Below are positions 2-60,215 of a stretch of 64,000 nt of DNA, piece after piece. Source of the stretch: Escherichia coli. Lineage in GTDB: Bacteria; Pseudomonadota; Gammaproteobacteria; Enterobacterales; Enterobacteriaceae. The stretch lies in assembly GCF_003790525.1 (NCBI RefSeq), contig NZ_CP033635.1. One strand, given 5' to 3'. The notes beneath the pieces were generated by a model, which searched no databases, was not told the DNA's origin, and was given only the letters and a program-made list of their open reading frames with translations. The number at the start of each line of letters is the position of its first letter. The first letter of the stretch is position 1. Both the position numbers and the translations under genes were made by a program.

Positions 2-3000
2 ACAACCACCATCAAAAATGGCGGTGAGCAAAGAGTATATGAGAGCCGTGCGCTGGACACTACGATTGAAGGCGGAACTCAGTCTCTGAATAGTAATTCA
101 ACGGCAAAAAATACGCAGATCTATTCTGGTGGTACGCAAATTGTTGATTACACCAGCACCTCGGATGTTATTGAAATTTATTCCGGTGGCGTGCTTGATG
201 TTAGAGGTGGTATGGCAACAAATGTTACTCAGCACGATGGAGCCGCTTTAAAAGTAACGACTTACGATTTGACGGTGAGCGGTACGAATAGTGAAGGGGC
301 ATTCTCCATCCACAATAACGTGGCAGACAATGTGTTGCTGGAAAACGGTGGTCATTTAGACGTATATGGTTCGGCAACCAGGACGATAATTAAAGATAAA
401 GGAACAATGTCAGTTTTAACGAATGCTAAAGCTGATGCGACCCGAATAGATAATGGCGGGGTTATGGATGTCGCCGGAAACGCGACCAATACCATAATCA
501 ATGGTGGTACACAGAATATTAATAATCATGGTATTGCCACTGGCACCAATATCAACAGTGGAACGCAAAATATCAAGAGCGGCGGGAAAGCTGACACGAC
601 AAATATATCCTCCGGGAGCCGGCAGATTGTTGAGAAAGATGGTACGGCAACTGGCAGCAATATTAGCGCTGGAGGCTCGCTGATTGTCTATACCGGCGGT
701 ATTGCACATGGGGTTAACCAGGAGACGGGCAGTGCTTTAGTTGCCAACACGGGCGCAGGGACTGATATCGAAGGATACAACAAGCTCTCTCGCTTCACTA
801 TTATCGGAGGAGAGGCTAATTATGTTGTGCTGGAAAATACCGGCGAACTGACGGTAGTGGCTAAAACCTCGGCGAAAAATACTACCATTGATGCTGGCGG
901 TAAGCTGATTGTCCAGAAGGAGGCTAAAACAGATAGCACCAGACTTAATAATGGCGGCGTTCTGGAGGTTCAGGACGGTGGTGAGGCTAAGCATGTTGAG
1001 CAACAATCCGGCGGCGCATTAATTGCTTCCACGACCTCCGGAACACTTATCGAAGGAACCAACAGTTATGGTGATGCTTTCTACATCAGGAATTCAGAAG
1101 CTAAAAATGTAGTGCTGGAAAACGCTGGCTCATTAACAGTCGTCACTGGTTCCCGGGCAGTTGACACGATTATTAATGCCAACGGCAAAATGGATGTTTA
1201 TGGAAAAGATGTTGGTACTGTACTTAATAGTGCGGGTACCCAAACAATATATGCCAGTGCCACTTCTGAAAAAGCAAATATCAAAGGTGGCAAGCAAACG
1301 GTATATGGTTTAGCCACTGAGGCAAATATCGAAAGTGGTGAACAAATTGTTGATGGTGGGTCAACAGATAAAACGCACATCAAAGGCGGCACGCAAACCG
1401 TTCAGAATTATGGTAAGGCGATCAATACCGATATCGTCTCTGGCCTACAACAAATTATGGCAAACGGGACAGCGGAAGGTTCCATTATTAATGGCGGTTC
1501 ACAGGTAGTTAATGAGGGCGGTCTGGCTGAAAACTCGGTACTTAATGACGGCGGCACACTCGATGTGCGGGAGAAAGGCAGCGCTACGGGGATACAGCAG
1601 AGTAGCCAGGGCGCGTTGGTGGCAACCACCAGAGCGACGCGGGTCACAGGGACACGCGCTGATGGCGTCGCGTTCAGCATCGAGCAGGGTGCGGCGAACA
1701 ATATCCTGCTGACAAATGGCGGCGTGTTAACCGTGGAGTCAGACACCTCTTCCGCCAAAACACAGGTCAATGCGGGCGGGCGGGAGATCGTCAAAACAAA
1801 AGCCACTGCGACAGGCACGACGCTCACCGGCGGCGAACAAATCGTCGAGGGTGTGGCGAATGAGACAACGATTAACGACGGCGGAATACAAACAGTTTCG
1901 GCTAACGGTGAGGCAGTAAAAACAACGATTAATGAAGGCGGTACGCTGACAGTCAACGATAATGGCAAAGCGACAGATATCATCCAGAACAGCGGTGCCG
2001 CTCTCCAGACGAGCACGGCTAACGGTATTGAAATCAGCGGTACTCACCAGTACGGCACCTTTTCCATTGCCGGAAATTTAGCGACCAATGCGTTGCTGGA
2101 AAATGGCGGTAATTTATTGGTATTAGCAGGTACCGAAGCCCGTGACTCCACGGTTGGCAAGGGTGGTGCAATGCAAAACCTGGGTCAGGACTCCGCCACA
2201 AAGGTTAACTCTGGCGGGCAATATACCCTTGGGCGGTCAAAAGATGAGTTTCAGGCTCTGGCCCGGGCAGAAGATCTCCAGGTCGCTGGCGGGACGGCAA
2301 TCGTCTATGCAGGTACGCTGGCGGATGCATCGGTCAGTGGCGCGACAGGAAGCCTGTCGTTAATGACGCCACGGGATAATGTTACGCCAGTTAAACTCGA
2401 AGGGGCGATCCGGATTACCGATAGCGCGACATTAACTATCGGAAATGGCGTCGATACGACGCTTACCGACCTGACGGCTGCCAGCCGGGGCAGTGTCTGG
2501 CTTAACAGCAATAATTCCTGTGCAGGTACCAGCAACTGCGAATATAGAGTAAACAGTTTGCTCCTCAACGACGGTGATGTTTATTTATCAGCACAAACAG
2601 CAGCGCCTGCCACAACTAACGGTATCTACAATACGCTGACAACCAGTGAACTTTCCGGCAGCGGTAATTTCTACCTGCATACCAACGTTGCAGGCTCCCG
2701 GGGCGATCAACTGGTCGTCAACAACAACGCCACTGGTAATTTTAAAATCTTTGTTCAGGATACCGGCGTCAGCCCTCAGTCTGACGACGCGATGACGCTG
2801 GTGAAAACAGGGGGAGGGGATGCTTCGTTTACGCTGGGTAATACCGGCGGTTTCGTTGATCTTGGGACCTATGAGTATGTCCTGAAAAGCGACGGCAACA
2901 GCAACTGGAACCTGACCAATGATGTCAAACCCAACCCGGACCCCAACCCAAATCCGAAGCCGGATCCAAAACCAGACCCAAAACCGGATCCGAAACCAGA

Positions 3001-3955
3001 CCCGACTCCCGATCCAACGCCGACACCCGTCCCGGAGAAACGCATCACGCCTTCTACGGCAGCCGTACTCAATATGGCAGCAACATTACCGTTGGTCTTT
3101 GATGCTGAGCTAAACAGTATTCGCGAGCGGTTGAACATAATGAAAGCGAGTCCACACAACAATAATGTCTGGGGGACGACGTATAACACCCGTAATAATG
3201 TCACCACCGATGCGGGTGCCGGGTTTGAGCAGACGCTGACCGGAATGACGGTGGGGATCGATAGCCGTAATGATATTCCTGAGGGGATTGCGACGCTGGG
3301 CGCTTTTATGGGTTATTCCCATTCACATATCGGTTTTGATCGTGGAGGACATGGCAGTGTGGGCAGTTATTCTCTGGGGGGCTATGCCAGCTGGGAACAT
3401 GAAAGTGGTTTCTATCTGGACGGTATCGTGAAGCTGAACCGCTTTGAAAGTAACGTAGCCGGTAAAATGAGCAGCGGTGGAGCCGCCAACGGCAGTTATC
3501 GCAGCAACGGGCTGGGCGGTCACATTGAAACCGGGATGCGATTTACCGATGGTAACTGGAACCTGACGCCGTATGCATCGTTAACGGGGTTCACCGCTGA
3601 TAACCCCGAATATCATTTATCCAATGGCATGGAATCGAAATCAGTCGATACCCGCAGTATATATCGTGAACTGGGCGCAACGCTGAGTTACAACATGCGT
3701 CTGGGGAACGGCATGGAAGTTGAGCCGTGGCTGAAGGCGGCTGTGCGCAAAGAATTTGTCGATGATAACCGGGTGAAAGTGAATAATGACGGTAATTTTG
3801 TCAATGATTTGTCGGGCAGACGTGGAATATACCAGGCAGGTATTAAAGCCTCATTCAGCAGTTCGTTAAGCGGGAATCTCGGGGTGGGGTATAGCCATGG
3901 TGCCGGTGTGGAATCCCCGTGGAACGCAGTGGCTGGTGTGAACTGGTCGTTCTGA
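2..3955 (+). CDS. AIDA-I-type autotransporter adhesin, 5'-partial (reading frame open to the window edge)
   Basis: Frame is open from position 2 with no stop, so the gene starts upstream of the window. Repetitive Gly/Thr/Asn-rich beta-helix-like passenger, Pro-rich PNPDPK linker, C-terminal beta-barrel domain ending in ...NWSF. By position next to ssrA it may be the ypjA ortholog, but that is inferred from context only. Confidence 0.8.
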   Translation, partial: TTTIKNGGEQRVYESRALDTTIEGGTQSLNSNSTAKNTQIYSGGTQIVDYTSTSDVIEIYSGGVLDVRGGMATNVTQHDGAALKVTTYDLTVSGTNSEGAFSIHNNVADNVLLENGGHLDVYGSATRTIIKDKGTMSVLTNAKADATRIDNGGVMDVAGNATNTIINGGTQNINNHGIATGTNINSGTQNIKSGGKADTTNISSGSRQIVEKDGTATGSNISAGGSLIVYTGGIAHGVNQETGSALVANTGAGTDIEGYNKLSRFTIIGGEANYVVLENTGELTVVAKTSAKNTTIDAGGKLIVQKEAKTDSTRLNNGGVLEVQDGGEAKHVEQQSGGALIASTTSGTLIEGTNSYGDAFYIRNSEAKNVVLENAGSLTVVTGSRAVDTIINANGKMDVYGKDVGTVLNSAGTQTIYASATSEKANIKGGKQTVYGLATEANIESGEQIVDGGSTDKTHIKGGTQTVQNYGKAINTDIVSGLQQIMANGTAEGSIINGGSQVVNEGGLAENSVLNDGGTLDVREKGSATGIQQSSQGALVATTRATRVTGTRADGVAFSIEQGAANNILLTNGGVLTVESDTSSAKTQVNAGGREIVKTKATATGTTLTGGEQIVEGVANETTINDGGIQTVSANGEAVKTTINEGGTLTVNDNGKATDIIQNSGAALQTSTANGIEISGTHQYGTFSIAGNLATNALLENGGNLLVLAGTEARDSTVGKGGAMQNLGQDSATKVNSGGQYTLGRSKDEFQALARAEDLQVAGGTAIVYAGTLADASVSGATGSLSLMTPRDNVTPVKLEGAIRITDSATLTIGNGVDTTLTDLTAASRGSVWLNSNNSCAGTSNCEYRVNSLLLNDGDVYLSAQTAAPATTNGIYNTLTTSELSGSGNFYLHTNVAGSRGDQLVVNNNATGNFKIFVQDTGVSPQSDDAMTLVKTGGGDASFTLGNTGGFVDLGTYEYVLKSDGNSNWNLTNDVKPNPDPNPNPKPDPKPDPKPDPKPDPTPDPTPTPVPEKRITPSTAAVLNMAATLPLVFDAELNSIRERLNIMKASPHNNNVWGTTYNTRNNVTTDAGAGFEQTLTGMTVGIDSRNDIPEGIATLGAFMGYSHSHIGFDRGGHGSVGSYSLGGYASWEHESGFYLDGIVKLNRFESNVAGKMSSGGAANGSYRSNGLGGHIETGMRFTDGNWNLTPYASLTGFTADNPEYHLSNGMESKSVDTRSIYRELGATLSYNMRLGNGMEVEPWLKAAVRKEFVDDNRVKVNNDGNFVNDLSGRRGIYQAGIKASFSSSLSGNLGVGYSHGAGVESPWNAVAGVNWSF

Positions 3956-4115: not shown

Positions 4116-4478
4116 TGGTGGAGCTGGCGGGAGTTGAACCCGCGTCCGAAATTCCTACATCCTCGGTACTACATGCTTAGTCAGTCTTTACATTCGCTTG
4201 CCAGCTGCGGACGGACACGCCACTAACAAACTAGCCTGATTAAGTTTTAACGCTTCAACCCCAGGCAGGGCTTCCACGCGATCTCTTTTGGGTTTGACCT
4301 CTCTTGATCCCCGTCCTAAGAGCGGAGGCTAGGGAGAGAGGGCTCTAAGCAGGTTATTAAGCTGCTAAAGCGTAGTTTTCGTCGTTTGCGACTATTTTTT
4401 GCGGCTTTTTACGAGGCCAACCGCCCCTCGGCATGCACCTTGGGTTTCGCAAATCCCGTCGAATCCAGAATCAGCCCC
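4116..4478 (-). ncRNA. ssrA: tmRNA (SsrA), 363 nt
   Basis: Reverse complement reads GGGGCTGATTCTGGATTCGACGGG ... CCAGCTCCACCA and contains the tag reading frame encoding ANDENYALAA; sits downstream of smpB as expected. Confidence 0.95.
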
Positions 4479-9960: not shown

Positions 9961-9990
9961 ATGGCCGACGCGAAGTCGGCCATTTTTTTA
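9961..9990. terminator. intrinsic terminator shared by grpE and the convergent acidic ORF
   Basis: ATGGCCGACGCGAAGTCGGCCAT hairpin followed by TTTTTTT on the plus strand; the stop codon of the minus-strand ORF lies in the T-run. Confidence 0.75.
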
Positions 9991-10629
9991 GCTTAAAAAA
10001 TCCTGTACTTCCAGCCACGGCGTGTTGAAATCATCTATTTTTTTATATTCGTTCATTGGCAGAACGACCACGTTATAGGTGTCAGATCCTTCATTCAGAT
10101 CAAAAATCTGAAAGCCCCTTTTATTGAGTTCGGTTTGGATGCGTTCAAAGATTTCGTCAAGGTAACGGTCTCCGGCTTCACAGACATCGGAGATTTCATC
10201 CTCTTGGGTTATTTCGACAAGAAGACTCCTTAATTCCTCAGAAGCTGTCAGGTTTTTTGTGAGCTCATAAAAGCGATCTGCAGCAAAATTAGCCAGCTCA
10301 CCTTCTTCATCTTCACCTTTCCAGTCAACGAGTTGAATTAGTCCTTCACCGCGCAGAACCTGTAAAAATGCCTGCGCCAGGTCATGATTTCCGAGATCGC
10401 CTCCACTGCAATCGAGAACGTCTTGTAATCCATATTCGTCTTCATCTTCGTCTTCAAAGATTTCAGGTTGCGTCGAAAGTTGAGAGAAAATAGTGGGCCA
10501 TAAGGTTGGGGTGTGCTGTAAAAAAACGCTGGCGACGACGTTGAGATCGTCTGCAAAATCCTTATCCCATTCAATTAAATAATCTTCTGACATAACATCA
10601 ATATCCTTTCCGAATGTTTGAAAAGACAT
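9988..10629 (-). CDS. hypothetical highly acidic cytoplasmic protein (213 aa), unrecognised, probably accessory
   Basis: Intact ORF; 51 Asp+Glu versus about 13 Lys+Arg; EDEDEDE run; no signal peptide or TM segment; no motif I recognise. Not part of the K-12 grpE-yfjD arrangement as I recall it. Start may be 10629 (no Shine-Dalgarno) or the Met at 10593 (AAGGA about 10 nt upstream). Confidence 0.6.
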   Translation of the reverse strand: MSFQTFGKDIDVMSEDYLIEWDKDFADDLNVVASVFLQHTPTLWPTIFSQLSTQPEIFEDEDEDEYGLQDVLDCSGGDLGNHDLAQAFLQVLRGEGLIQLVDWKGEDEEGELANFAADRFYELTKNLTASEELRSLLVEITQEDEISDVCEAGDRYLDEIFERIQTELNKRGFQIFDLNEGSDTYNVVVLPMNEYKKIDDFNTPWLEVQDFLS

Positions 10630-14746: not shown

Positions 14747-15295
14747 ATGAGCAAACAACTCACCGCGCAAGCACCTGTTGATCCCATCGTTTTGGGAAAA
14801 ATGGGTTCGTCTTACGGTATTCGTGGGTGGCTCAGAGTGTTTTCTTCCACCGAAGACGCCGAAAGCATTTTTGACTATCAGCCCTGGTTTATCCAGAAGG
14901 CGGGTCAGTGGCAGCAAGTCCAGCTGGAAAGCTGGAAGCACCACAATCAGGACATGATCATCAAGCTGAAAGGCGTTGACGATCGTGATGCGGCGAACCT
15001 GCTGACGAATTGTGAAATTGTCGTGGATTCATCGCAGTTGCCTCAGCTTGAAGAGGGTGACTACTACTGGAAAGACCTGATGGGCTGCCAGGTAGTAACC
15101 ACTGAAGGCTACGATCTCGGTAAAGTCGTCGATATGATGGAAACCGGATCTAATGACGTTCTCGTCATTAAGGCAAACCTGAAAGATGCGTTTGGTATCA
15201 AGGAACGTCTCGTACCGTTCCTCGATGGGCAGGTTATCAAGAAAGTCGATCTCACTACTCGTTCAATCGAAGTAGATTGGGATCCTGGTTTTTAA
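14747..15295 (+). CDS. rimM: ribosome maturation factor RimM
   Basis: 182-aa ORF starting [29 protein letters not shown]... Confidence 0.95.
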
Positions 15296-15325
15296 ACCAC
15301 CGGATAAACGGTAAAAGACGGCGCT

Positions 15326-16093
15326 ATGTGGATTGGCATAATTAGCCTGTTTCCTGAAATGTTCCGCGCAATTACCGATTACGGGGTAACTGGCCGGGCA
15401 GTTAAAAATGGCCTGCTGAGCATCCAGAGCTGGAGTCCTCGCGACTTCACGCATGACCGGCACCGTACCGTGGACGATCGTCCTTACGGCGGCGGACCGG
15501 GGATGTTAATGATGGTGCAACCCTTGCGGGACGCCATTCATGCAGCAAAAGCCGCGGCGGGTGAAGGCGCAAAGGTGATTTATCTGTCACCACAGGGACG
15601 CAAGCTTGATCAAGCGGGCGTCAGCGAGCTGGCAACGAATCAAAAATTGATTCTGGTGTGCGGTCGCTACGAAGGTATAGATGAGCGCGTGATCCAAACC
15701 GAAATTGATGAAGAATGGTCAATCGGCGATTACGTTCTCAGTGGTGGTGAGTTACCAGCAATGACGCTGATTGACTCCGTTTCCCGGTTTATTCCGGGAG
15801 TACTGGGACATGAGGCCTCGGCAACGGAAGATTCCTTTGCTGAAGGATTGCTGGATTGCCCGCACTATACGCGGCCTGAGGTGTTAGAAGGGATGGAAGT
15901 TCCGCCAGTGTTACTGTCGGGCAACCATGCCGAGATACGTCGCTGGCGTTTGAAACAGTCGCTGGGCCGTACCTGGCTTAGAAGACCTGAACTTCTGGAA
16001 AACCTGGCTCTGACTGAAGAGCAAGCAAGGTTGCTGGCGGAGTTCAAAACGGAACACGCACAACAGCAACATAAACATGATGGGATGGCGTAA
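15326..16093 (+). CDS. trmD: tRNA (guanine37-N1)-methyltransferase TrmD
   Basis: 255-aa [34 protein letters not shown]... Confidence 0.97.
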
Positions 16094-16131
16094 GCCCCCG
16101 AGATATCAGTTTACCCAGGATAAGAGATTAA

Positions 16132-16482
<351 letters not shown>

Positions 16483-16508
16483 GATTTCGCTTAAGCGACA
16501 TCCTGTTA

Positions 16509-16545
16509 AGAAGGGCTGGCCAATTGGCTGGCCCTTTTTTTATCT
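16509..16545. terminator. intrinsic terminator after rplS, shared with convergent yfiB
   Basis: GC-rich palindrome AAGGGCTGGCCAATTGGCTGGCCC followed by a T-run. Confidence 0.7.
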
Positions 16546-16558
16546 ATCAAAATTGCGT

Positions 16559-17041
16559 TTACGGTGCACTAATCACCACAGCGACGCGGCGGTTCTCGGC
16601 GCGGCCCTGGGCGGTCTTGTTACTGGCTATGGGATATTTTTTTCCTAAACCCTGTGTGGTGAGATTGCTGCGCGGAATTTGTCCACCCATAGCCCATGCA
16701 TCGGCCACGACATTCGCCCGTTTTAATGATAAGACTTCGTTGTAACTGTCTTCACCATAGTTGTCGGTGTGTCCATCCATACGGGCATGTGTTAGCCCTG
16801 TCGAGGCCAATTTGGCTGCCATGGTTTGGATTTGTTGCTGGCTTTCCGGGAGCAATTTGTAGTCATTTTTTGCGAACAGAATGGCATCTGATAAGCCCAG
16901 CGACCAGTCGCCGGCGGATTCAGTAAATCCATAAGATTGCATAGCGGCGACTTGCTCAGGAGTAAACTTTCCCTGAGGGGACTGGCAGCCAGTAAGTATT
17001 AGCGAGGTGAAAATCAGGGGTGCTACCAGGTGCTTTATCAT
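16559..17041 (-). CDS. yfiB: OmpA-family outer membrane lipoprotein YfiB
   Basis: 160-aa ORF with lipobox (LTGCQS) and OmpA-like peptidoglycan-binding C-terminus. Confidence 0.9.
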   Translation of the reverse strand: MIKHLVAPLIFTSLILTGCQSPQGKFTPEQVAAMQSYGFTESAGDWSLGLSDAILFAKNDYKLLPESQQQIQTMAAKLASTGLTHARMDGHTDNYGEDSYNEVLSLKRANVVADAWAMGGQIPRSNLTTQGLGKKYPIASNKTAQGRAENRRVAVVISAP

Positions 17042-17056
17042 ATCGATATATCCTTG

Positions 17057-18283
17057 TTATCTCACCAGCTTTTCGGCACGCTGGTGTTTGGCCTGATACA
17101 TATTGTGATCGGCAAGCTCTTGTAAATTTTCCGCAGAGGCGTGCTCAATGGTCATCGCGTAACCAATGCTTAATGTCATGGTAGTCTGATGGCCATTATG
17201 AAGATCAAACGGGAGATTAAAAATTTGTGTCAGTGCTGAGCATATCTGCTGCACTTCAGATTCCGATTGTACATCATAGAGCACCATAGCGAATTCATCG
17301 CCGCCCAGGCGGTATGCTTTATGTCGCAGCCCGCCAAATTCAGTTAACCGTTTTGCTATTTCAATCAAGACTCTATCGCCCGTCGCATGACCCCAGGTAT
17401 CATTGATATATTTGAAATTATCGCCATCAAGAAATAGTAACGCCGACGTTTTTCGGGCATCGGAACTGTTCATCAACGTGTTGATACCGCTACGAAACGC
17501 TGCGCGGTTAGCCAGCCCGGTTAATGGGTCATGTAGTGCGGTACGTAGAAGCTGCGCATTTTTGGCCTGTAAACGAAGCTGCCACTCTTCCATTTCATCC
17601 AGCAGACTGTTGAAGTCGAGAGCGAAGCGGTGAAACTCTGCGATACGTTCTTCCGAAACTCGTCGGGAAAAATTGCGGTTGGAACGCACATCATGTACGA
17701 CATCGGTGATGTTTTTTAACGCTTCAACCAGACCATTGTGCAAATGGCGGGTGAGGGTAATTGCGATGCCTGACGCTAGCAGAATGCAGGCGGTCAGGAC
17801 AGCGAGCGAAAACCAGATGAAATGGCTGATTGAACTGTCGCGAGCGGTTAAGCGAACTTCGCCAATGGTTTCACCATTGTGACGAATCGGCTGAATGATG
17901 GGGGCAGGGAAGAGCCAGTGGCTTATGAAATTACTGAAAGTATCGCCTGGATCCTTACGGGTGTAATGCCAGGATGCCAGAATATTTTGCTGCTTATCAC
18001 GCACTTCTGCAGTTGAAAATTGGCCTTGCTGCCCCAGCGCTGCCAGTGTTTCAGTTGCTGCAGGGCCATCGGCAAAAACGACCGCTGCTTCCAGACTGTA
18101 AGTCATTGTTGCTGCTGTCAGTGCCAGGTTTTTTTGCGCGTACTGTTTCAGGGTCAGCACCGAGGTCACGGAAAGCAGCAACCAGATCAGCATCATAGTG
18201 ATAAATATGCTGGTCATACTGATGTTGCGTAATGCTCTTTTAAACGTGGGGCGCTTATGAAGAGAATTATCGTTATCCATCAT
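17057..18283 (-). CDS. dgcN: membrane diguanylate cyclase DgcN (YfiN), GGDEF domain
   Basis: 408-aa ORF with TM segments, HAMP-like region and a GGDEF motif (RLGGDEF). Confidence 0.9.
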
Positions 18284-18791
18284 TTTTCTTCCGTGCGAGC
18301 ATTAAGACATCCGGGTTGACCTTTACACCGCTACGCGATAAGGCATCCAGGTTTACGGCAAATCTGACGTCATTATTGTGGATGATTAGACAAAAGGCGC
18401 TACCAATAATGCACTCGGTATTTTGTTCGGCAATTAATAATAACGCCTTTGACGGATATTGTTCGGTTAATTCCATCTGGAATGTCGGTGACTCGTTGCC
18501 AAAATAAAAACCATTGCAGCCTGAAATCATCGCCTCTTGTTGAGTGTGAATGATGACAGGTAGATAAGGCAAAGATGTCGTGCCATTCTCTTGTAGGGCG
18601 TTACTAAAATGTGAAGATGAAAAGATACATAACTTTGGTGGCCCTGATAGCGCAGGCCAGCGGGTGTAACTGACAATACCGGAAACCATCATACGCACGT
18701 TTTTCGCAACGTCAGAAGGTTCCTGAGCGAGTATTGGTGCTCCCGTCAGCAGGAGAATCAGCAGTAAGAACAGTCGGTGAGAAAAACGCAT
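18273..18791 (-). CDS. yfiR: periplasmic repressor of DgcN, YfiR
   Basis: 172-aa ORF with signal peptide; 11-bp overlap with dgcN start, operon order yfiR-yfiN-yfiB. Confidence 0.85.
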
Positions 18792-18940
18792 TCAGGGATC
18801 CTCACCATCTTCGCTCGAAATGCATCGATATTTTTTCAGAATGCTCATTAAAATATCATTCTTTCATGCGGTCGTCATCAATGTGAGAAATAAAACACAA
18901 TGAGTAGAATCTCATGTTTAATTTATTTGTGGGGGTTTAA

Positions 18941-19306
18941 TTAATTTAATCGTATTGTGCTGGCATTTTCATCAGCCCCTTTTTGCCATACTTCATGCAG
19001 TTGGCTGGCATTTTCAACATTGTTGCAGCTGGCAGGAAAGCTTTTACCGGAAAGTCCTCGGGCATAAGTAAAATCGGTCTGGCAAGTTTTCTTTTGTCCT
19101 TCGGCATATCCTTTAAGGTATAGACCGCGATCCGCCTGTGAATCGCTAAATGCATCGTCATCTTTTATGGCGTTGCCCGATATCGCATCTTCCATACCAA
19201 CATCATACCAGTCGGTGCTGGTCAAGGTTGGCGCGTGAGTATAAGGATCAATCTGACATCCGCTAACCAGTAAAGCCAACAAGGGGGCGATAAACTTTTT
19301 CATCAT
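18941..19306 (-). CDS. yfiL: lipoprotein YfiL
   Basis: ORF with lipobox (LLVSGCQ); start taken at MMKKFIAPLL. Confidence 0.7.
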   Translation of the reverse strand: MMKKFIAPLLALLVSGCQIDPYTHAPTLTSTDWYDVGMEDAISGNAIKDDDAFSDSQADRGLYLKGYAEGQKKTCQTDFTYARGLSGKSFPASCNNVENASQLHEVWQKGADENASTIRLN

Positions 19307-19351
19307 TTCTTTCTCCTTTTTCAAAGCATAGCGGATTGTTTTCAAAGGTGG

Positions 19352-19421
19352 TGTAAATTTATTTATACATAAACAAGGGTTAAAAGCGCGAATAAATTGC
19401 TTGTGTAAAGAAAAATGTACG
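19352..19421. promoter_or_regulatory. TyrR boxes in the aroF promoter
   Basis: TGTAAATTTATTTATACA (19352..19369) and TGTAAAGAAAAATGTAC (19404..19420) fit TGTAAA-N6-TTTACA. Confidence 0.7.
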
Positions 19422-19515
19422 AAATATGGATTGAAAACTTTACTTTATGTGTTATCGTTACGTCATCCTCGCTGAGGATCAACTATCGCAAACGAGCATA
19501 AACAGGATCGCCATC

Positions 19516-20586
19516 ATGCAAAAAGACGCGCTGAATAACGTACATATTACCGACGAACAAGTTTTAATGACTCCGGAACAACTGAAGGCCGCTTTTCCAT
19601 TAAGCCTGCAACAGGAAGCCCAGATTGCTGACTCGCGTAAAACCATTTCAGATATTATCGCCGGGCGCGATCCTCGTCTGTTGGTAGTATGTGGTCCTTG
19701 TTCCATTCATGATCCGGAAACTGCTCTGGAATATGCTCGTCGATTTAAAGCCCTTGCCGCAGAGGTCAGCGATAGCCTCTATCTGGTAATGCGCGTCTAT
19801 TTTGAAAAACCCCGTACCACTGTCGGTTGGAAAGGGTTGATTAACGATCCCCATATGGATGGCTCTTTTGATGTAGAAGCCGGGCTGCAGATCGCGCGTA
19901 AATTGCTGCTTGAGCTGGTGAATATGGGACTGCCACTGGCGACGGAAGCGTTAGATCCGAATAGCCCGCAATACCTGGGCGATCTGTTTAGCTGGTCAGC
20001 AATTGGTGCTCGTACAACGGAATCGCAAACACACCGTGAAATGGCCTCCGGGCTTTCCATGCCGGTTGGTTTTAAAAACGGCACCGACGGCAGCCTTGCA
20101 ACGGCTATTAACGCTATGCGTGCCGCCGCCCAGCCGCACCGTTTTGTTGGCATTAACCAGGCAGGGCAGGTGGCGTTGCTACAAACTCAGGGGAATCCGG
20201 ACGGGCATGTGATCCTGCGCGGTGGTAAAGCGCCGAACTATAGCCCTGCGGATGTTGCGCAATGTGAAAAAGAGATGGAACAGGCGGGACTGCGCCCGTC
20301 TCTGATGGTAGATTGCAGCCACGGTAATTCCAATAAAGATTATCGCCGTCAGCCTGCGGTGGCAGAATCCGTGGTTGCTCAAATCAAAGATGGCAATCGC
20401 TCAATTATTGGTCTGATGATTGAAAGTAATATCCACGAGGGCAATCAGTCTTCCGAGCAACCGCGCAGTGAAATGAAATACGGTGTATCCGTCACCGATG
20501 CCTGCATTAGTTGGGAAATGACCGATGCCTTGCTGCGTGAAATTCATCAGGATCTGAACGGGCAGCTGACGGCTCGCGTGGCTTAA
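19516..20586 (+). CDS. aroF: Tyr-sensitive DAHP synthase AroF
   Basis: 356-aa ORF from [29 protein letters not shown]... Confidence 0.95.
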
Positions 20587-26363: not shown

Positions 26364-26424
26364 CCTAAAGAATCAAGACGATCCGGTACGCGTGATTTTC
26401 TTTTCACATTAATCTGGTCAATAA

Positions 26425-26460
26425 CCTTGAATAATTGAGGGATGACCTCATTTAATCTCC
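26425..26460 (+). promoter_or_regulatory. sigma32 heat-shock promoter of clpB
   Basis: CCTTGAATAA ... GACCTCATTTAAT, resembling the sigma32 -35/-10 consensus. Confidence 0.55.
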
Positions 26461-26492
26461 AGTAGCAACTTTGATCCGTTATGGGAGGAGTT

Positions 26493-29066
26493 ATGCGTCT
26501 GGATCGTCTTACTAATAAATTCCAGCTTGCTCTTGCCGATGCCCAATCACTTGCACTCGGGCACGACAACCAATTCATCGAACCACTTCATTTAATGAGC
26601 GCCCTGCTGAATCAGGAAGGGGGTTCGGTTAGTCCTTTATTAACATCCGCTGGCATAAATGCTGGCCAGTTGCGCACAGATATCAATCAGGCATTAAATC
26701 GTTTACCGCAGGTTGAAGGTACTGGTGGTGATGTCCAGCCATCACAGGATCTGGTGCGCGTTCTTAATCTTTGCGACAAGCTGGCGCAAAAACGTGGTGA
26801 TAACTTTATCTCGTCAGAACTGTTCGTTCTGGCGGCACTTGAGTCTCGCGGCACGCTGGCCGACATCCTGAAAGCAGCAGGGGCGACCACCGCCAACATT
26901 ACTCAAGCGATTGAACAAATGCGTGGAGGTGAAAGCGTGAACGATCAAGGTGCTGAAGACCAACGTCAGGCTTTGAAAAAATATACCATCGACCTTACCG
27001 AACGAGCCGAACAGGGTAAACTCGATCCGGTGATTGGTCGTGATGAAGAAATTCGCCGTACCATTCAGGTGCTGCAACGTCGTACTAAAAATAACCCGGT
27101 ACTGATTGGTGAACCAGGCGTCGGTAAGACTGCCATCGTTGAAGGTCTGGCGCAGCGTATTATCAACGGCGAAGTGCCCGAAGGGTTGAAAGGCCGCCGC
27201 GTACTGGCGCTGGATATGGGCGCGCTGGTGGCTGGGGCGAAATATCGCGGTGAGTTTGAAGAACGTTTAAAAGGCGTACTTAACGATCTTGCCAAACAGG
27301 AAGGCAACGTCATCCTGTTTATCGACGAATTACATACCATGGTCGGCGCGGGTAAAGCCGATGGCGCAATGGACGCCGGAAACATGCTGAAACCGGCGCT
27401 GGCGCGTGGTGAATTGCACTGCGTAGGTGCCACGACGCTTGACGAATATCGCCAGTACATCGAAAAAGATGCTGCGCTGGAACGTCGTTTCCAGAAAGTG
27501 TTTGTTGCCGAGCCTTCTGTTGAAGATACGATTGCGATTCTGCGTGGCCTGAAAGAACGTTACGAGCTGCACCACCATGTGCAAATTACTGACCCGGCAA
27601 TTGTTGCAGCGGCGACGTTGTCTCATCGCTACATTGCTGACCGTCAGCTGCCAGATAAAGCCATCGACCTGATCGATGAGGCAGCATCCAGCATTCGTAT
27701 GCAGATTGACTCAAAACCAGAAGAACTCGACCGACTCGATCGCCGTATCATCCAGCTCAAACTGGAACAACAGGCGTTAATGAAAGAGTCTGATGAAGCC
27801 AGTAAAAAACGTCTGGATATGCTCAATGAAGAACTGAGCGACAAAGAACGTCAGTACTCCGAGTTAGAAGAAGAGTGGAAAGCAGAGAAAGCATCGCTTT
27901 CTGGTACGCAGACCATTAAAGCGGAACTGGAACAGGCGAAAATCGCTATTGAACAGGCTCGCCGTGTGGGTGACCTGGCGCGGATGTCTGAACTGCAATA
28001 CGGCAAAATCCCGGAACTGGAAAAGCAACTGGAAGCCGCAACGCAGCTCGAAGGCAAAACTATGCGTCTGTTGCGTAATAAAGTGACCGATGCCGAAATT
28101 GCTGAAGTGCTGGCGCGTTGGACGGGGATTCCGGTTTCTCGCATGATGGAAAGCGAGCGCGAAAAACTGCTGCGTATGGAGCAAGAACTGCACCATCGCG
28201 TTATTGGTCAGAACGAAGCGGTTGATGCGGTATCTAACGCTATTCGTCGTAGCCGTGCGGGGCTGGCGGATCCAAATCGCCCGATTGGTTCATTCCTGTT
28301 CCTCGGCCCAACGGGTGTGGGGAAAACTGAGCTTTGTAAGGCGCTGGCGAACTTTATGTTTGATAGCGACGAGGCGATGGTCCGTATCGATATGTCCGAG
28401 TTTATGGAGAAACACTCGGTGTCTCGTCTGGTTGGTGCGCCTCCGGGATATGTCGGTTATGAAGAAGGTGGCTACCTGACCGAAGCGGTGCGTCGTCGTC
28501 CGTATTCCGTCATCCTGCTGGATGAAGTGGAAAAAGCGCATCCGGATGTCTTCAACATTCTGTTGCAGGTACTGGATGATGGGCGTCTGACTGACGGGCA
28601 GGGGAGAACGGTCGACTTCCGTAATACGGTTGTCATTATGACCTCTAACCTCGGTTCCGATTTGATTCAGGAACGCTTCGGTGAACTGGATTATGCGCAC
28701 ATGAAAGAGCTGGTGCTCGGTGTGGTAAGCCATAACTTCCGTCCGGAATTCATTAACCGTATCGATGAAGTGGTGGTCTTCCATCCGCTGGGTGAACAGC
28801 ACATTGCGTCGATTGCGCAGATTCAGTTGAAACGTCTGTATAAACGTCTGGAAGAACGTGGTTATGAAATCCACATTTCTGACGAGGCGCTGAAACTGCT
28901 GAGCGAGAACGGTTACGATCCGGTCTATGGTGCACGTCCTCTGAAACGTGCAATTCAGCAGCAGATCGAAAACCCGCTGGCACAGCAAATACTGTCTGGT
29001 GAATTGGTTCCGGGTAAAGTGATTCGCCTGGAAGTTAATGAAGACCGGATTGTCGCCGTCCAGTAA
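26493..29066 (+). CDS. clpB: disaggregase chaperone ClpB
   Basis: 857-aa ORF from [35 protein letters not shown]... with two AAA+ modules. Confidence 0.97.
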
Positions 29067-29509: not shown

Positions 29510-31051
<1,542 letters not shown>

Positions 31052-50400: not shown

Positions 50401-50976
50401 ATGAGCGAGCAGTTAACGGACCAGGTCCTGGTTGAACGGGTCCAGAAGGGAGATCAGAAAGCCTTTAACTTACTGGTAGTGCGCTATCAGCATAAAGTGG
50501 CGAGTCTGGTTTCCCGCTATGTGCCGTCGGGTGATGTTCCCGATGTGGTACAAGAAGCTTTTATTAAAGCCTATCGTGCGCTGGATTCGTTCCGGGGAGA
50601 TAGCGCTTTTTATACATGGCTGTATCGGATTGCTGTAAATACAGCGAAAAATTACCTGGTTGCTCAGGGGCGTCGTCCACCTTCCAGTGATGTGGATGCC
50701 ATTGAAGCTGAAAACTTCGAAAGTGGCGGCGCGTTGAAAGAAATTTCGAACCCTGAGAACTTAATGTTGTCAGAAGAACTGAGACAGATAGTTTTCCGAA
50801 CTATTGAGTCCCTCCCGGAAGATTTACGCATGGCAATAACCTTGCGGGAGCTGGATGGCCTGAGCTATGAAGAGATAGCCGCTATCATGGATTGTCCGGT
50901 AGGTACGGTGCGTTCACGTATCTTCCGAGCGAGGGAAGCTATTGATAACAAAGTTCAACCGCTTATCAGGCGTTGA
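50401..50976 (+). CDS. rpoE: RNA polymerase sigma factor sigmaE
   Basis: 191-aa ORF MSEQLTDQVLVERVQKGDQKAFNLLVVRYQHKV... Confidence 0.97.
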   Translation: MSEQLTDQVLVERVQKGDQKAFNLLVVRYQHKVASLVSRYVPSGDVPDVVQEAFIKAYRALDSFRGDSAFYTWLYRIAVNTAKNYLVAQGRRPPSSDVDAIEAENFESGGALKEISNPENLMLSEELRQIVFRTIESLPEDLRMAITLRELDGLSYEEIAAIMDCPVGTVRSRIFRAREAIDNKVQPLIRR

Positions 50977-51008
50977 CGATAGCGGGATACTGGATAAGGG
51001 TATTAGGC

Positions 51009-51659
51009 ATGCAGAAAGAACAACTTTCCGCTTTAATGGATGGCGAAACGCTGGATAGTGAGCTGCTTAACGAACTGGCTCATAACCCAGAAATGCAGAA
51101 AACCTGGGAAAGCTATCACTTAATCCGTGACTCAATGCGGGGTGATACTCCCGAGGTGCTCCATTTCGATATCTCTTCACGAGTGATGGCCGCCATTGAA
51201 GAAGAGCCAGTACGTCAACCGGCGACATTGATCCCGGAAGCCCAGCCTGCGCCGCATCAATGGCAGAAAATGCCATTCTGGCAGAAAGTACGTCCGTGGG
51301 CGGCACAGCTTACCCAAATGGGCGTAGCCGCATGCGTATCGCTTGCAGTTATCGTTGGCGTCCAGCACTATAATGGACAATCTGAAACGTCCCAGCAGCC
51401 CGAAACGCCGGTATTTAATACACTGCCGATGATGGGTAAAGCCAGCCCGGTAAGCCTGGGAGTACCTTCTGAAGCGACCGCAAACAATGGTCAACAGCAG
51501 CAGGTACAGGAGCAGCGTCGTCGCATTAATGCAATGTTGCAGGATTACGAACTGCAACGCCGACTCCACTCTGAACAGCTTCAGTTTGAGCAGGCGCAAA
51601 CCCAGCAAGCCGCTGTACAGGTGCCAGGAATTCAAACTTTAGGAACGCAATCGCAGTAA
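51009..51659 (+). CDS. rseA: anti-sigmaE factor RseA
   Basis: 216-aa ORF MQKEQLSALMDGETLDSELLNELAHNPEMQKTWESYHLIRD... with central TM segment and Gln-rich C-terminus. Confidence 0.95.
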   Translation: MQKEQLSALMDGETLDSELLNELAHNPEMQKTWESYHLIRDSMRGDTPEVLHFDISSRVMAAIEEEPVRQPATLIPEAQPAPHQWQKMPFWQKVRPWAAQLTQMGVAACVSLAVIVGVQHYNGQSETSQQPETPVFNTLPMMGKASPVSLGVPSEATANNGQQQQVQEQRRRINAMLQDYELQRRLHSEQLQFEQAQTQQAAVQVPGIQTLGTQSQ

Positions 51660-52615
51660 TGAAGCAACTTTGGTTTGCCATGTCATTAGTGACAGGTAGC
51701 CTGTTATTCTCTGCTAACGCCTCGGCCACTCCCGCGTCCGGGGCGTTATTACAGCAGATGAACCTGGCCAGTCAGTCACTGAATTACGAGCTGTCATTCA
51801 TCAGCATCAATAAACAGGGTGTTGAGTCTCTGCGTTATCGACATGCACGCCTCGATAACCGTCCTCTTGCACAATTGTTGCAAATGGATGGCCCGCGCCG
51901 GGAAGTGGTACAGCGCGGCAATGAGATCAGCTATTTTGAACCGGGACTTGAACCGTTCACGCTTAATGGCGATTACATTGTTGATTCTCTGCCATCGCTC
52001 ATCTATACCGATTTCAAACGCCTTTCTCCTTACTACGACTTTATCTCCGTCGGGCGCACGCGTATTGCTGATCGTCTTTGCGAAGTTATTCGCGTGGTTG
52101 CCCGAGATGGTACACGCTACAGCTACATCGTGTGGATGGACACCGAATCGAAATTACCGATGAGGGTTGATCTCCTTGATCGCGATGGTGAAACGCTGGA
52201 ACAATTTCGCGTGATTGCTTTTAATGTCAATCAGGATATCAGCAGCAGTATGCAGACGCTGGCGAAGGCAAATTTGCCGCCGTTGCTTTCTGTTCCTGTA
52301 GGTGAAAAAGCTAAATTCAGCTGGACGCCAACCTGGTTGCCACAGGGTTTTAGCGAAGTTTCCAGTAGTCGACGTCCGCTACCGACGATGGACAACATGC
52401 CTATTGAATCACGTCTCTATTCCGACGGATTATTCAGCTTCTCGGTAAACGTTAACCGCGCTACGCCATCGAGCACCGATCAGATGTTGCGCACCGGACG
52501 CAGAACCGTCAGTACAAGCGTACGTGATAACGCCGAAATCACCATTGTCGGTGAACTGCCGCCGCAAACGGCGAAACGCATTGCCGAGAATATTAAGTTC
52601 GGGGCAGCGCAATGA
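51659..52615 (+). CDS. rseB: sigmaE regulatory protein RseB
   Basis: 318-aa secreted ORF; operon position. Confidence 0.95.
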   Translation: MKQLWFAMSLVTGSLLFSANASATPASGALLQQMNLASQSLNYELSFISINKQGVESLRYRHARLDNRPLAQLLQMDGPRREVVQRGNEISYFEPGLEPFTLNGDYIVDSLPSLIYTDFKRLSPYYDFISVGRTRIADRLCEVIRVVARDGTRYSYIVWMDTESKLPMRVDLLDRDGETLEQFRVIAFNVNQDISSSMQTLAKANLPPLLSVPVGEKAKFSWTPTWLPQGFSEVSSSRRPLPTMDNMPIESRLYSDGLFSFSVNVNRATPSSTDQMLRTGRRTVSTSVRDNAEITIVGELPPQTAKRIAENIKFGAAQ

Positions 52616-53091
52616 TCAAAGAGTGGGCTACCGTCGTCTCCTGGGAAAACGGGCAGGCGCTGGTTAGTTGTGATGTTAAAGCCTCATGCAGCAGCTGCGC
52701 TTCACGCGCCGGTTGCGGTAGCCGCGTGTTGAATAAACTTGGCCCGCAAACCACGCATACCATTGTCGTACCCTGTGATGAACCGTTAGTGCCGGGGCAA
52801 AAAGTAGAATTAGGAATCGCCGAAGGCAGCCTGCTTAGCTCCGCATTACTGGTTTATATGTCGCCGTTGGTGGGACTATTCCTCATCGCTTCACTATTTC
52901 AGCTACTCTTTGCTTCAGATATTGCAGCATTATGCGGTGCGATTCTCGGTGGCGTTGGTGGATTCCTGATTGCACGTGGCTGCTCTCGAAAGTTTGCTGC
53001 CCGGTCTGAATGGCAACCGATCATCTTAAGCGTGGCCTTGCCGCCTGGCCTTGTGCGATTTGAAACATCTTCGGAAGACGCGAGCCAGTGA
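52612..53091 (+). CDS. rseC: RseC (SoxR-reducing system component)
   Basis: 159-aa membrane ORF with CSSCASRAGC motif. Confidence 0.9.
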   Translation: MIKEWATVVSWENGQALVSCDVKASCSSCASRAGCGSRVLNKLGPQTTHTIVVPCDEPLVPGQKVELGIAEGSLLSSALLVYMSPLVGLFLIASLFQLLFASDIAALCGAILGGVGGFLIARGCSRKFAARSEWQPIILSVALPPGLVRFETSSEDASQ

Positions 53092-53287
53092 TTTCACTGG
53101 CTTTGTTGCATTTTGCATAACAAATGCGAGGACGTTTCCAGATACCCAATCCATACGGTATGAACATTTCCTCGCCTCAATGTTGTAGTGTAGAATGCGG
53201 CGTTTCTATTAATACAGACGTTAAGCTCAGAACAGCGACTTCTAAAAGCCTGGTTAACCGGGCATTAAGGCACAATAATCATACTTT

Positions 53288-55087
<1,800 letters not shown>

Positions 55088-59795: not shown

Positions 59796-60215
59796 AAAAA
59801 TACCGTTCTCTTTATAAAGTAAAACCCCCGAACTGGTAAGGAACGGGGGTTTTACTTTACAACTTTAATTTTGTGCAGCACACGATTCCAACGGAAATGA
59901 TTATGGATCAATTTAGTTGACCTGTACAAGCAACTTGCAATCTCTGACATAAAAAACGCGAGCCTTTACGAAGAAATCGACATTGATGAAAAGATTAACG
60001 TGACCGCTTTTTGATAAGTACATTAAAATCGGTTTCGTTATTGGCAATTTTGCTGTGCTTTACACCATGCCACTGAATTCCCCCATTGAAACGAGTGGTG
60101 TCGTCAAAGCTCTGGTGTGGAGTGCAGCACTCGATTCCAATAACTCGCACGTTCAGTTTTGGGGTGATGTAAGGGCTAATCTGAACGGCTGCATTCCTTG
60201 TTTAAGGAAAAACGA

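Follow-up and report, generated by a model that had tools for sequence, protein, structure and literature searches.

Signalling systems that combine a YfiR-type repressor, a YfiN-type diguanylate cyclase and, in most cases, a YfiB-type lipoprotein have been studied mechanistically in E. coli, Shigella, Salmonella, Yersinia and Pseudomonas. The YfiBNR system of Pseudomonas aeruginosa (YfiB PA1119, TpbB/YfiN PA1120, YfiR PA1121) consists of the same three protein families and follows the same operon logic as the locus analysed here, at 32–43% identity. In E. coli, YfiR represses YfiN, and the repression is relieved by DTT or by dsbA mutation (PMC4992967). YfiR binding has been assigned to the region of YfiN which is called 'PAS-like' in the literature (PMC4992967), and the label HAMP for the YfiN linker is also taken from the literature (PMC10127611). 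In Yersinia pestis, HmsCDE is a homologous tripartite system with the YfiR-like HmsC, the GGDEF cyclase HmsD and the OmpA-like HmsE (PMC5550408).

We have analysed a stretch of 64,000 nucleotides of E. coli (contig NZ_CP033635.1, assembly GCF_003790525.1), which is referred to as the window. In the open reading frame listing, yfiR, dgcN (yfiN) and yfiB are three adjacent and co-directional genes in the order yfiR-yfiN-yfiB, all on the minus strand (Table 1). We are highly confident that they form the canonical, intact yfiR-dgcN(yfiN)-yfiB operon of E. coli, with an allele identical to that of strain SMS-3-5, and there is no evidence against the operon identity. The locus itself is already known, as it belongs to the textbook E. 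coli core genome and is annotated alike in thousands of genomes.

Table 1 Features of the yfiR-dgcN-yfiB locus and its flanks, in window positions.
Feature	Position	Strand	Remarks
Hairpin between convergent rplS and yfiB	16508..16539	both	14-pair stem, U-tract on plus strand
yfiB	16559..17041	-	160 aa, ATG start
YfiB lipobox LTGC (aa 16-19; Cys19 lipidated, predicted)	16985..16996	-	+2 residue Gln
dgcN (yfiN)	17057..18283	-	408 aa, start reads ATG-ATG
DgcN GGDEF catalytic domain, cytoplasmic (aa 249-403)	17075..17539	-	PF00990, 146.9 bits, profile positions 1-159 of 161
GGDEF active-site motif (aa 327-331, within RLGGDEF)	17291..17305	-	plus strand reads GAATTCATCGCCGCC
Primary I-site position, GLRH (aa 318-321), five residues upstream of GGDEF	17321..17332	-	not RxxD
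DgcN periplasmic sensor domain CHASE8 (aa 45-146)	17846..18151	-	PF17152, 115.8 bits, profile positions 1-102 of 102
yfiR	18273..18791	-	172 aa, ATG start
YfiR signal peptide (aa 1-22, then QEP)	18726..18791	-	read from sequence; cleavage site inferred
yfiL-yfiR intergenic region, 149 bp	18792..18940	-	yfiR ribosome-binding site GAGGA 8 nt before ATG

The yfiR stop codon (18273-18275) falls within dgcN, whose start is at 18283, giving an overlap of 11 nt, while the yfiB ATG is separated from the stop of dgcN by a gap of 15 nt, nucleotides 17042-17056. By their sequence, the three genes are translationally coupled. Each protein passes the curated cut-off of its NCBIfam equivalog model, and the E-values (YfiR 3e-49, DgcN 3e-151, YfiB 1e-104) place the identities far beyond chance. 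The initial annotation had described three intact genes coupled by an 11-bp overlap and a 15-bp gap, encoding a periplasmic repressor, a GGDEF cyclase and an OmpA-like lipoprotein. The intactness is borne out by exact gene limits, K-12 lengths and equivalog scores, the spacing follows from the coordinates, and the identities agree with the Pfam and NCBIfam matches and with the identity to K-12. The positions given there are exact, while the strand was missing. Opposite-strand reading frames across the operon are all of 76 aa or less and antisense to strongly supported genes, and were treated as spurious. An in-frame stop in ypjA at the start of the window, suspected from the reading frame listing, was dismissed after direct translation. 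Rfam scans of the whole window at the gathering threshold, and of 16400-19500 at E<=1, found no RNA elements in or beside the operon.

The locus was compared with complete E. coli genomes. At least 15 of them, including SMS-3-5, share DNA that is 100% identical over 2.6 kb, with the same three genes annotated. Overall, the locus belongs to the core genome: of 5426 complete genomes, 5425 carry it, and 5405 have it in unbroken form. In K-12 (b2603-b2605), the gene order, the protein lengths (172/408/160 aa), the 11-bp overlap and the 15-bp gap are all the same, and the neighbours are also shared, with rplS on one side and yfiL plus aroF on the other. The identity to the K-12 proteins is 98% for YfiR (168/172), 99% for DgcN (403/408) and 98% for YfiB (156/160). 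The 13 amino-acid substitutions, none of which affects a motif with a known essential role, are R61H, T64N, A70G and A71T in YfiR, clustered in one loop; N9H, G165A, N273S, A314T and K386N in DgcN; and V10I, G103V, T158S and T159A in YfiB. The final 11 nt of yfiB and ~20 nt downstream have also diverged from K-12. At codon level, dgcN shows 25 synonymous and 5 nonsynonymous differences, and yfiB shows 9 and 4, respectively; the sequence is under purifying selection.

YfiR scores 166.7 bits against the NCBIfam equivalog NF053586 sequest_YfiR (cut-off 85) and 107.4 bits against Pfam PF13689 (DUF4154, YfiR/HmsC-like; cut-off 24.9), and is matched by the P. aeruginosa YfiR structure in the PDB (E 5e-17, 32% identity). 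Its N-terminus carries a basic n-region and a hydrophobic stretch at aa 3-25 (Kyte-Doolittle, 19-residue window, >1.6), and an I-L-A motif precedes Q23, where cleavage would take place. YfiR is accordingly predicted to be a Sec-exported periplasmic protein. Cys55, Cys92, Cys127 and Cys134 align with Cys71, Cys110, Cys145 and Cys152 of the P. aeruginosa protein, and the pairs C55/C92 and C127/C134 are predicted disulfides. Among the residues proposed to contact YfiN in P. aeruginosa, F151 (F133 here) and I169 (L151) are kept, and E163 (A145) and Q187 (K169) are replaced. The binding and repression of DgcN by YfiR are presumed here by carrying them over from the 98%-identical K-12 protein (PMC4992967).

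DgcN scores 503.6 bits against the NCBIfam DgcN/YfiN equivalog NF007423 (cut-off 325), with residues 11-399 covering profile positions 1-390 of 390. Two hydrophobic segments (aa 20-46 and aa 150-179) enclose the CHASE8 domain, and the protein is predicted from its sequence to cross the inner membrane twice, with CHASE8 in the periplasm, followed by a linker and by a GGDEF domain that is intact. The CHASE8 domain is presumably the one that binds YfiR. In the linker, the Pfam HAMP model gives no match even at E<=5. The GGDEF domain is 43% identical to the catalytic domain of P. aeruginosa TpbB/YfiN (7a7e). In six E. coli alleles (96.8–100% DNA identity), GGDEF at 327-331 is invariant, as are D286/D288, N294 and D303, the presumed metal/GTP-binding residues as in PleD. 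DgcN thus carries the motifs of active GGDEF cyclases, and its activity is predicted. The initial annotation had named frameshifts or loss of the GGDEF motif on realignment as what would speak against it; neither is seen, the protein alignments being free of gaps and the motif unchanged.

On the other hand, a check of the I-site, which had also been proposed there, turns out to be moot. The primary I-site position holds GLRH both here and in K-12, and a scan of the whole DgcN protein finds no R..D pattern anywhere. P. aeruginosa TpbB/YfiN has RESD as its primary I-site, whereas the E. coli protein has GLRH together with a deletion of two residues at this place. PMC10127611 gives N280 as the position of the secondary I-site; residue 280 in the numbering used here is Ser, and no meaning for this site is attached to the nearby N273S substitution. 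As E. coli YfiN is natively without both I-sites, which results in GTP depletion (PMC10127611), the missing I-site is normal for E. coli DgcN and no defect, and it is functionally important.

YfiB scores 347.3 bits against NCBIfam NF007424 (cut-off 155) and 231.4 bits against NF053585 OMP_LP_YfiB (cut-off 128), carries a PF00691 OmpA domain at aa 55-151, and is matched by the P. aeruginosa YfiB structure in the PDB (E 6e-32, 41% identity). In bacterial lipoproteins, Asp at the +2 position is the signal for retention in the inner membrane. Since this residue is Gln in YfiB, the retention signal is absent and the protein would be sorted to the outer membrane. Cys19 aligns with the lipid-acceptor Cys26 of P. 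aeruginosa, and the peptidoglycan residues N59, D93, G96 and R108 correspond to N68, D102, G105 and R117 (PMC4887326). By its sequence, YfiB is an OmpA/Pal-like lipoprotein, and its peptidoglycan-binding pocket is intact.

According to published work in E. coli and P. aeruginosa, the module would operate as follows. Oxidised, DsbA-folded YfiR would sit on the periplasmic domain of DgcN and keep the cyclase off, and under reducing conditions YfiR would misfold and set DgcN free. The freed DgcN would then make c-di-GMP without product feedback, by which cellulose and curli would be made and motility inhibited. Published work further indicates that additional envelope stress may relocate DgcN to the division site, and that its overproduction may deplete GTP and arrest growth. 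As for YfiB, the activated, peptidoglycan-anchored lipoprotein may draw YfiR off DgcN at the outer membrane, as the P. aeruginosa structures show for that species. Since all parts of this c-di-GMP module, which responds to envelope and redox conditions, are intact, one would expect the strain to be able to make cellulose and curli, to inhibit motility and to arrest division or growth in a DgcN-dependent manner.

The operon promoter presumably lies within the yfiL-yfiR spacer, which is ~95% identical to K-12. However, a sigma-70 consensus scan gave five matches in total against 4.9 expected by shuffling, with none on the coding (minus) strand of the spacer. A separate promoter match before yfiB (17065-17037) is indistinguishable from chance and was discarded. 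At the other end, the hairpin between rplS and yfiB folds on the plus strand with -28.5 kcal/mol (z -5.1), and on the minus strand, where no clean U-tract is found, with -17.1 kcal/mol (z -2.0). It is a strong terminator for rplS and a weaker candidate for the end of the yfi transcript.

Could one of the three genes be a pseudogene that the initial annotation missed? Disrupted alleles, though rare, are real in the species, as seen in an O177:H21 strain with an ISVsa5 insertion in yfiR and in strain SW07163, where an IS1-associated deletion removes most of dgcN; for the present copy we have found no such support. The reading frames are of full length, neither the listing nor the alignments to K-12 and to four further alleles, all free of gaps, show internal stops or frameshifts, the GGDEF motif is intact and the equivalog scores are far over their cut-offs, by which frameshift, premature stop and GGDEF loss are ruled out, and the chance of a hidden pseudogene is negligible. 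It could also be argued that the genes are intact yet effectively silent in this strain, with very low transcription and YfiR always dominant, in which case their integrity would carry little phenotypic weight. Apart from the lack of a consensus match on the coding strand of the spacer, this argument can draw on a native-promoter YfiN-GFP fusion that is undetectable in K-12 (PMC4992967), on the finding that yfiR deletion alone brings no growth arrest, and on yfiN-inducing signals being described as unknown (PMC4992967, PMC10127611). But a genome-wide E. coli screen found raised c-di-GMP in yfiR mutants at native expression (PMC13031359), for DgcN, expression in every growth phase, driven by a sigma-70 promoter, has been reported (PMC5897775), and the purifying selection and the retention of the unbroken locus noted above point the same way, so we regard a silent module as improbable. 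The canonical, intact operon is the reading that we prefer.

The role of YfiB is less secure than the operon identity, and in E. coli-type systems it is supported only indirectly. The initial annotation took YfiB to sequester YfiR, which was established in P. aeruginosa and is not an E. coli result; in E. coli, a yfiB knockout leaves YfiN relocation under envelope stress unchanged (PMC4992967). One may thus suppose that E. coli YfiB is not a Pseudomonas-style clamp for YfiR, but mainly a Pal-like peptidoglycan anchor that affects c-di-GMP indirectly via envelope integrity, while DgcN is controlled by the redox state of YfiR alone. Salmonella has a working YfiR-YfiN pair without yfiB (PMC4992967), the identities to the P. 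aeruginosa proteins are low (YfiB 41%, YfiR 32%), and several polar YfiB-YfiR contacts of the P. aeruginosa 2:2 complex are lost (YfiB E45 to S36 and E53 to G44; YfiR E163 to A145, H177 to N159 and S146 to I128), with others kept (R96 as R87, E157 as E149, R171 as R153, R60 as R44 and S57 as S41). Against this, three hydrophobic anchors of YfiB (F48, W55 and F57, here F39, W46 and L48 in the alignment) are conserved together with the YfiR pocket that receives them (L166/I169/V176/P178/L181, here L148/L151/V158/P160/L163). In addition, practically every E. coli genome keeps yfiB 15 bp after dgcN, and YfiB passes the OMP_LP_YfiB model. The best support in an E. coli-type system comes from Shigella flexneri, whose YfiB shares residues C19Q20, P22Q23, E29Q30 and S36, and where yfiB deletion lowers c-di-GMP from 148 to 83 pg/mL, with restoration by complementation (PMC8948675). 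We thus consider the purely indirect role unlikely, while giving it more weight than the silent module. A bolder suggestion comes from the allele itself. The YfiR substitutions relative to K-12 cluster in loop 61-71 (H/N/G/T vs R/T/A/A), which adjoins the pocket that takes up the Phe anchor of YfiB when placed on the P. aeruginosa structures, and the YfiB C-terminus reads S158-A159 where other alleles have T-T or T-P, in a strand that hydrogen-bonds YfiR in those structures. These changes might be variants adapted to each other, moving the set-point for DgcN release by YfiB or, more radically, might reflect a YfiB-YfiR contact in E. coli unlike the Pseudomonas clamp; we consider this very unlikely. 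The present sequence offers no easier way to decide if YfiB controls YfiR in E. coli-type systems, and by what means.

Two wider statements of the initial annotation need adjustment. The module cannot clearly be called the window's main signalling system, as the sigma-E envelope-stress genes rpoE-rseABC are also present, at ~50.4–53.1 kb, and the small-colony-variant phenotype attached to the module is a P. aeruginosa result.

HmsCDE of Yersinia pestis, likened here by family and description, serves flea-blockage biofilm. In Salmonella enterica, YfiN of the yfiRN pair is under repression by YfiR and has an inhibitory effect on motility (PMC4992967); there, yfiB is absent and YfiN is not relocated on envelope stress (PMC4992967), while yfiB is present here. 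With P. aeruginosa, the locus has in common the disulfide cysteines of YfiR, the lipid-acceptor Cys and the peptidoglycan N/D/G/R residues of YfiB, and the hydrophobic anchors with their pocket (PMC4887326). Small-colony variants via Pel/Psl are the Pseudomonas output, whereas in E. coli the module acts on cellulose and curli and on motility, and arrests division or growth (PMC4992967, PMC10127611).

We have listed the ORFs across 15000-20500 of the window, and yfiR, dgcN (also named yfiN) and yfiB appear with exactly the limits, the 11-nt overlap and the 15-nt gap that the initial annotation described, though it left unstated that the genes lie on the minus strand. The yfiR stop codon (18273-18275) sits within dgcN, and the overlap shrinks to 8 nt if dgcN truly starts at its second ATG; the gap between dgcN and yfiB covers 17042-17056. 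Plausible ribosome-binding sites can be read from the sequence for each gene, namely GAGGA 8 nt 5' of the yfiR start, GGAAG inside the 3' end of yfiR for dgcN, and AAGGA 9 nt 5' of the yfiB start. On the opposite (plus) strand of the operon, every ORF is of 76 aa or less.

Coordinates of the operon genes and of other features in the window
Feature	Position	Strand	Details
yfiR	18273-18791	minus	172 aa, ATG start (ORF listing)
dgcN	17057-18283	minus	408 aa, ATG-ATG start (ORF listing)
yfiB	16559-17041	minus	160 aa, ATG start (ORF listing)
ypjA/ehaD autotransporter adhesin gene	2-3955		open, cut by window start; directly after ssrA
ssrA (tmRNA)	4116-4478	minus	
Acidic ORF	9988-10629	minus	201-213 aa; Pfam DUF6630, 42 bits; between grpE and yfjD
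RyfD sRNA match	26374-26512	plus	Rfam; upstream of clpB
rpoE-rseA-rseB-rseC	~50401-53091	plus	sigma-E envelope-stress system
AsrC antisense match	52576-53406		Rfam
OhsC antitoxin sRNA match	59816-59892	minus	Rfam; partner shoB toxin annotated in SMS-3-5

The identity of the three proteins is clear from both family models and comparison with E. coli K-12 MG1655. Pfam assigns YfiR to DUF4154 (YfiR/HmsC-like), DgcN to CHASE8 plus GGDEF, and YfiB to OmpA, and the NCBIfam equivalog scores against the curated cut-offs are 166.7 vs 85 bits for YfiR, 503.6 vs 325 for DgcN/YfiN, and 347.3 vs 155 and 231.4 vs 128 for YfiB. The K-12 genes b2603-b2605 have an identical architecture (lengths, overlap, gap and neighbours), with 168/172, 403/408 and 156/160 identical residues for YfiR, DgcN and YfiB, respectively. 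At the DNA level the operon genes are 97.1-98.5% identical to K-12. Synonymous codon changes outnumber nonsynonymous ones in dgcN (25 vs 5) and yfiB (9 vs 4), while in yfiR the two kinds are equally frequent (4 each). With full-length ORFs and gap-free alignments to K-12, the earlier description of the operon as intact is borne out.

When 5426 complete E. coli genomes were searched by megablast with 16400-19000 as the query, 5425 had this region. Strain SMS-3-5 and others, at least 15 genomes in all, are 100% identical over it, and all of these annotate rplS, yfiB, dgcN, yfiR and yfiL. The 2233-bp operon itself is a single unbroken piece, at a coverage of at least 80%, in 5405 of the 5426 genomes. 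Alleles at least 99% identical to that of the window occur in only 31 genomes, and the remainder show 95-99% identity, as is usual for alleles of different lineages. Broken alleles are rare: ISVsa5 lies within yfiR in an O177:H21 strain, and strain SW07163 has lost most of dgcN, together with the 3' part of yfiR, through an IS1-associated deletion. Since the operon is near-universal in the species and seldom broken, its intactness is a real but unsurprising property. Overall, the operon is real, correctly identified and ordinary, a known piece of the core genome that is intact, as is normal for it.

Upstream of yfiR, on the same strand, lies yfiL (DUF2799 lipoprotein), and the 149-bp spacer between them is well conserved with K-12. 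A consensus scan found no promoter in this spacer, and its match count equalled the chance expectation; Rfam has no family match within or beside the operon. At the other end, yfiB and rplS are convergent and served by one hairpin (16508-16539). In the rplS direction it is a strong terminator that has a U-tract (-28.5 kcal/mol, z -5.1), while in the yfiB direction there is no clean U-tract and the fold is weaker (-17.1 kcal/mol, z -2.0), since what pairs as G-U on one strand is a C-A mismatch on the other. At 16530-16570, the final 11 nt of yfiB and ~20 nt downstream are sharply diverged from K-12, with flanks ~98% identical; from its sequence, this stretch looks like a small replaced patch. 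Most genomes' alignments begin at base 12 of the operon query, and the C-terminus of YfiB reads SAP in the window vs TTP or TPP elsewhere.

The window as a whole is colinear with SMS-3-5, as anchored by tmRNA (4116-4478), 16S rRNA (29510-31051) and rseC (~52.6 kb). As far as the 16S rRNA gene, coordinates map onto those of SMS-3-5 exactly; at rpoE there is an offset of 1 nt, which implies either a single-base indel relative to NC_010498.1 between ~31051 and ~50976, or a different, nearly identical source strain. As rpoE-rseABC, a second and arguably more central envelope-stress signalling module, is also present, it is a matter of taste to call the yfi operon the main signalling system of the window. 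The DUF6630 ORF occupies an interval that is only a 54-bp spacer in K-12; its gene is found in just 303 of the 5426 genomes, always chromosomal and single-copy, and is a small lineage-restricted insertion. In K-12 the cryptic prophage CP4-57 is integrated beside ssrA, whereas here ypjA/ehaD follows directly, so the CP4-57 attachment site is unoccupied. The OhsC and RyfD matches are ordinary E. coli features.

In DgcN, CHASE8 (aa 45-146) is bracketed by hydrophobic segments (aa 20-46 and 150-179), which gives the expected periplasmic-sensor topology. The Pfam HAMP model has no match to the linker, even at E≤5; the HAMP label for YfiN is from the literature. The GGDEF motif, whose loss would have spoken against an intact cyclase, is present at aa 327-331 within RLGGDEF (nt 17291-17305). 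Upstream of it are D286/D288, N294 and D303, which, by analogy with PleD, would be the metal- and GTP-binding acidic/Asn residues. All of these are invariant in six alleles of 96.8-100% DNA identity, and where the protein differs from that of K-12, at five residues (N9H, G165A, N273S, A314T, K386N), the changes lie outside these motifs and outside the I-site position. The I-site, which the initial annotation proposed to compare with characterised YfiN, turned out to be absent: there is no RxxD anywhere in the protein, and GLRH (318-321) occupies its usual place, five positions upstream of GGDEF. The aligned residues of P. aeruginosa TpbB are RESD, and E. coli DgcN has a 2-residue deletion at this point. 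This agrees with published E. coli YfiN, which lacks primary and secondary I-sites like >90% of YfiN homologues, and the missing I-sites underlie runaway c-di-GMP synthesis, GTP depletion and growth arrest (PMC10127611).

For YfiR and YfiB, P. aeruginosa residue numbers were transferred via HMMER alignments to solved structures, a mapping validated by its recovery of the residues that the structure paper names (PMC4887326). Compared with their P. aeruginosa counterparts, YfiB is 41% identical, YfiR 32% and the cyclase, over its catalytic part, 43%. The N-terminus of YfiR resembles a signal peptide, and all four cysteines are kept (C55/C92 and C127/C134, equal to P. aeruginosa C71/C110 and C145/C152). 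In YfiB the lipobox is LTGC, where C19 matches P. aeruginosa C26, and the peptidoglycan-binding residues are N59, D93, G96 and R108 (P. aeruginosa N68, D102, G105, R117). Its three hydrophobic anchors for insertion into YfiR (F39, W46, L48) are conserved, as is the YfiR pocket for them (L148/L151/V158/P160/L163). Polar contacts are lost on both the YfiB side (P. aeruginosa E45 to S36, E53 to G44) and the YfiR side (E163 to A145, H177 to N159, S146 to I128).

All four YfiR differences from K-12 (R61H, T64N, A70G, A71T) fall within 11 codons (aa 61-71; 18579-18611, minus strand), where the six alleles show two haplotypes only, HNGT and RTAA. This loop aligns beside P. aeruginosa YfiR Q88-N90, the cradle of the YfiB F48 anchor. 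Lineage-specific substitutions are thus clustered in the YfiR loop and the YfiB C-terminus, both near the interface of the P. aeruginosa complex. This clustering, seen in six alleles, is the operon's only mildly interesting detail and may at most serve as a lead.

As for the mechanism, studies in E. coli cover YfiR and YfiN. YfiR represses YfiN, the repression is lifted by DTT or DsbA loss, and YfiN, once active, moves to the division site when a second envelope stress is applied (PMC4992967); a genome-wide screen found c-di-GMP raised in yfiR mutants (PMC13031359). The sequestering of YfiR by YfiB (PMC4887326) and the small-colony-variant phenotype, both attributed to this operon earlier, are P. 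aeruginosa findings, whereas an E. coli yfiB knockout left YfiN relocation unaltered, and Salmonella is without yfiB (PMC4992967). Therefore the YfiR-DgcN part of the mechanism is established, while we infer the YfiB step, by analogy, as probable for the E. coli type. The nearest support for it comes from Shigella flexneri, where c-di-GMP fell from 148 to 83 pg/mL on deletion of yfiB and recovered on complementation (PMC8948675); the residues mutated in that YfiB (C19Q20, P22Q23, E29Q30, S36) are all present in YfiB of the window.
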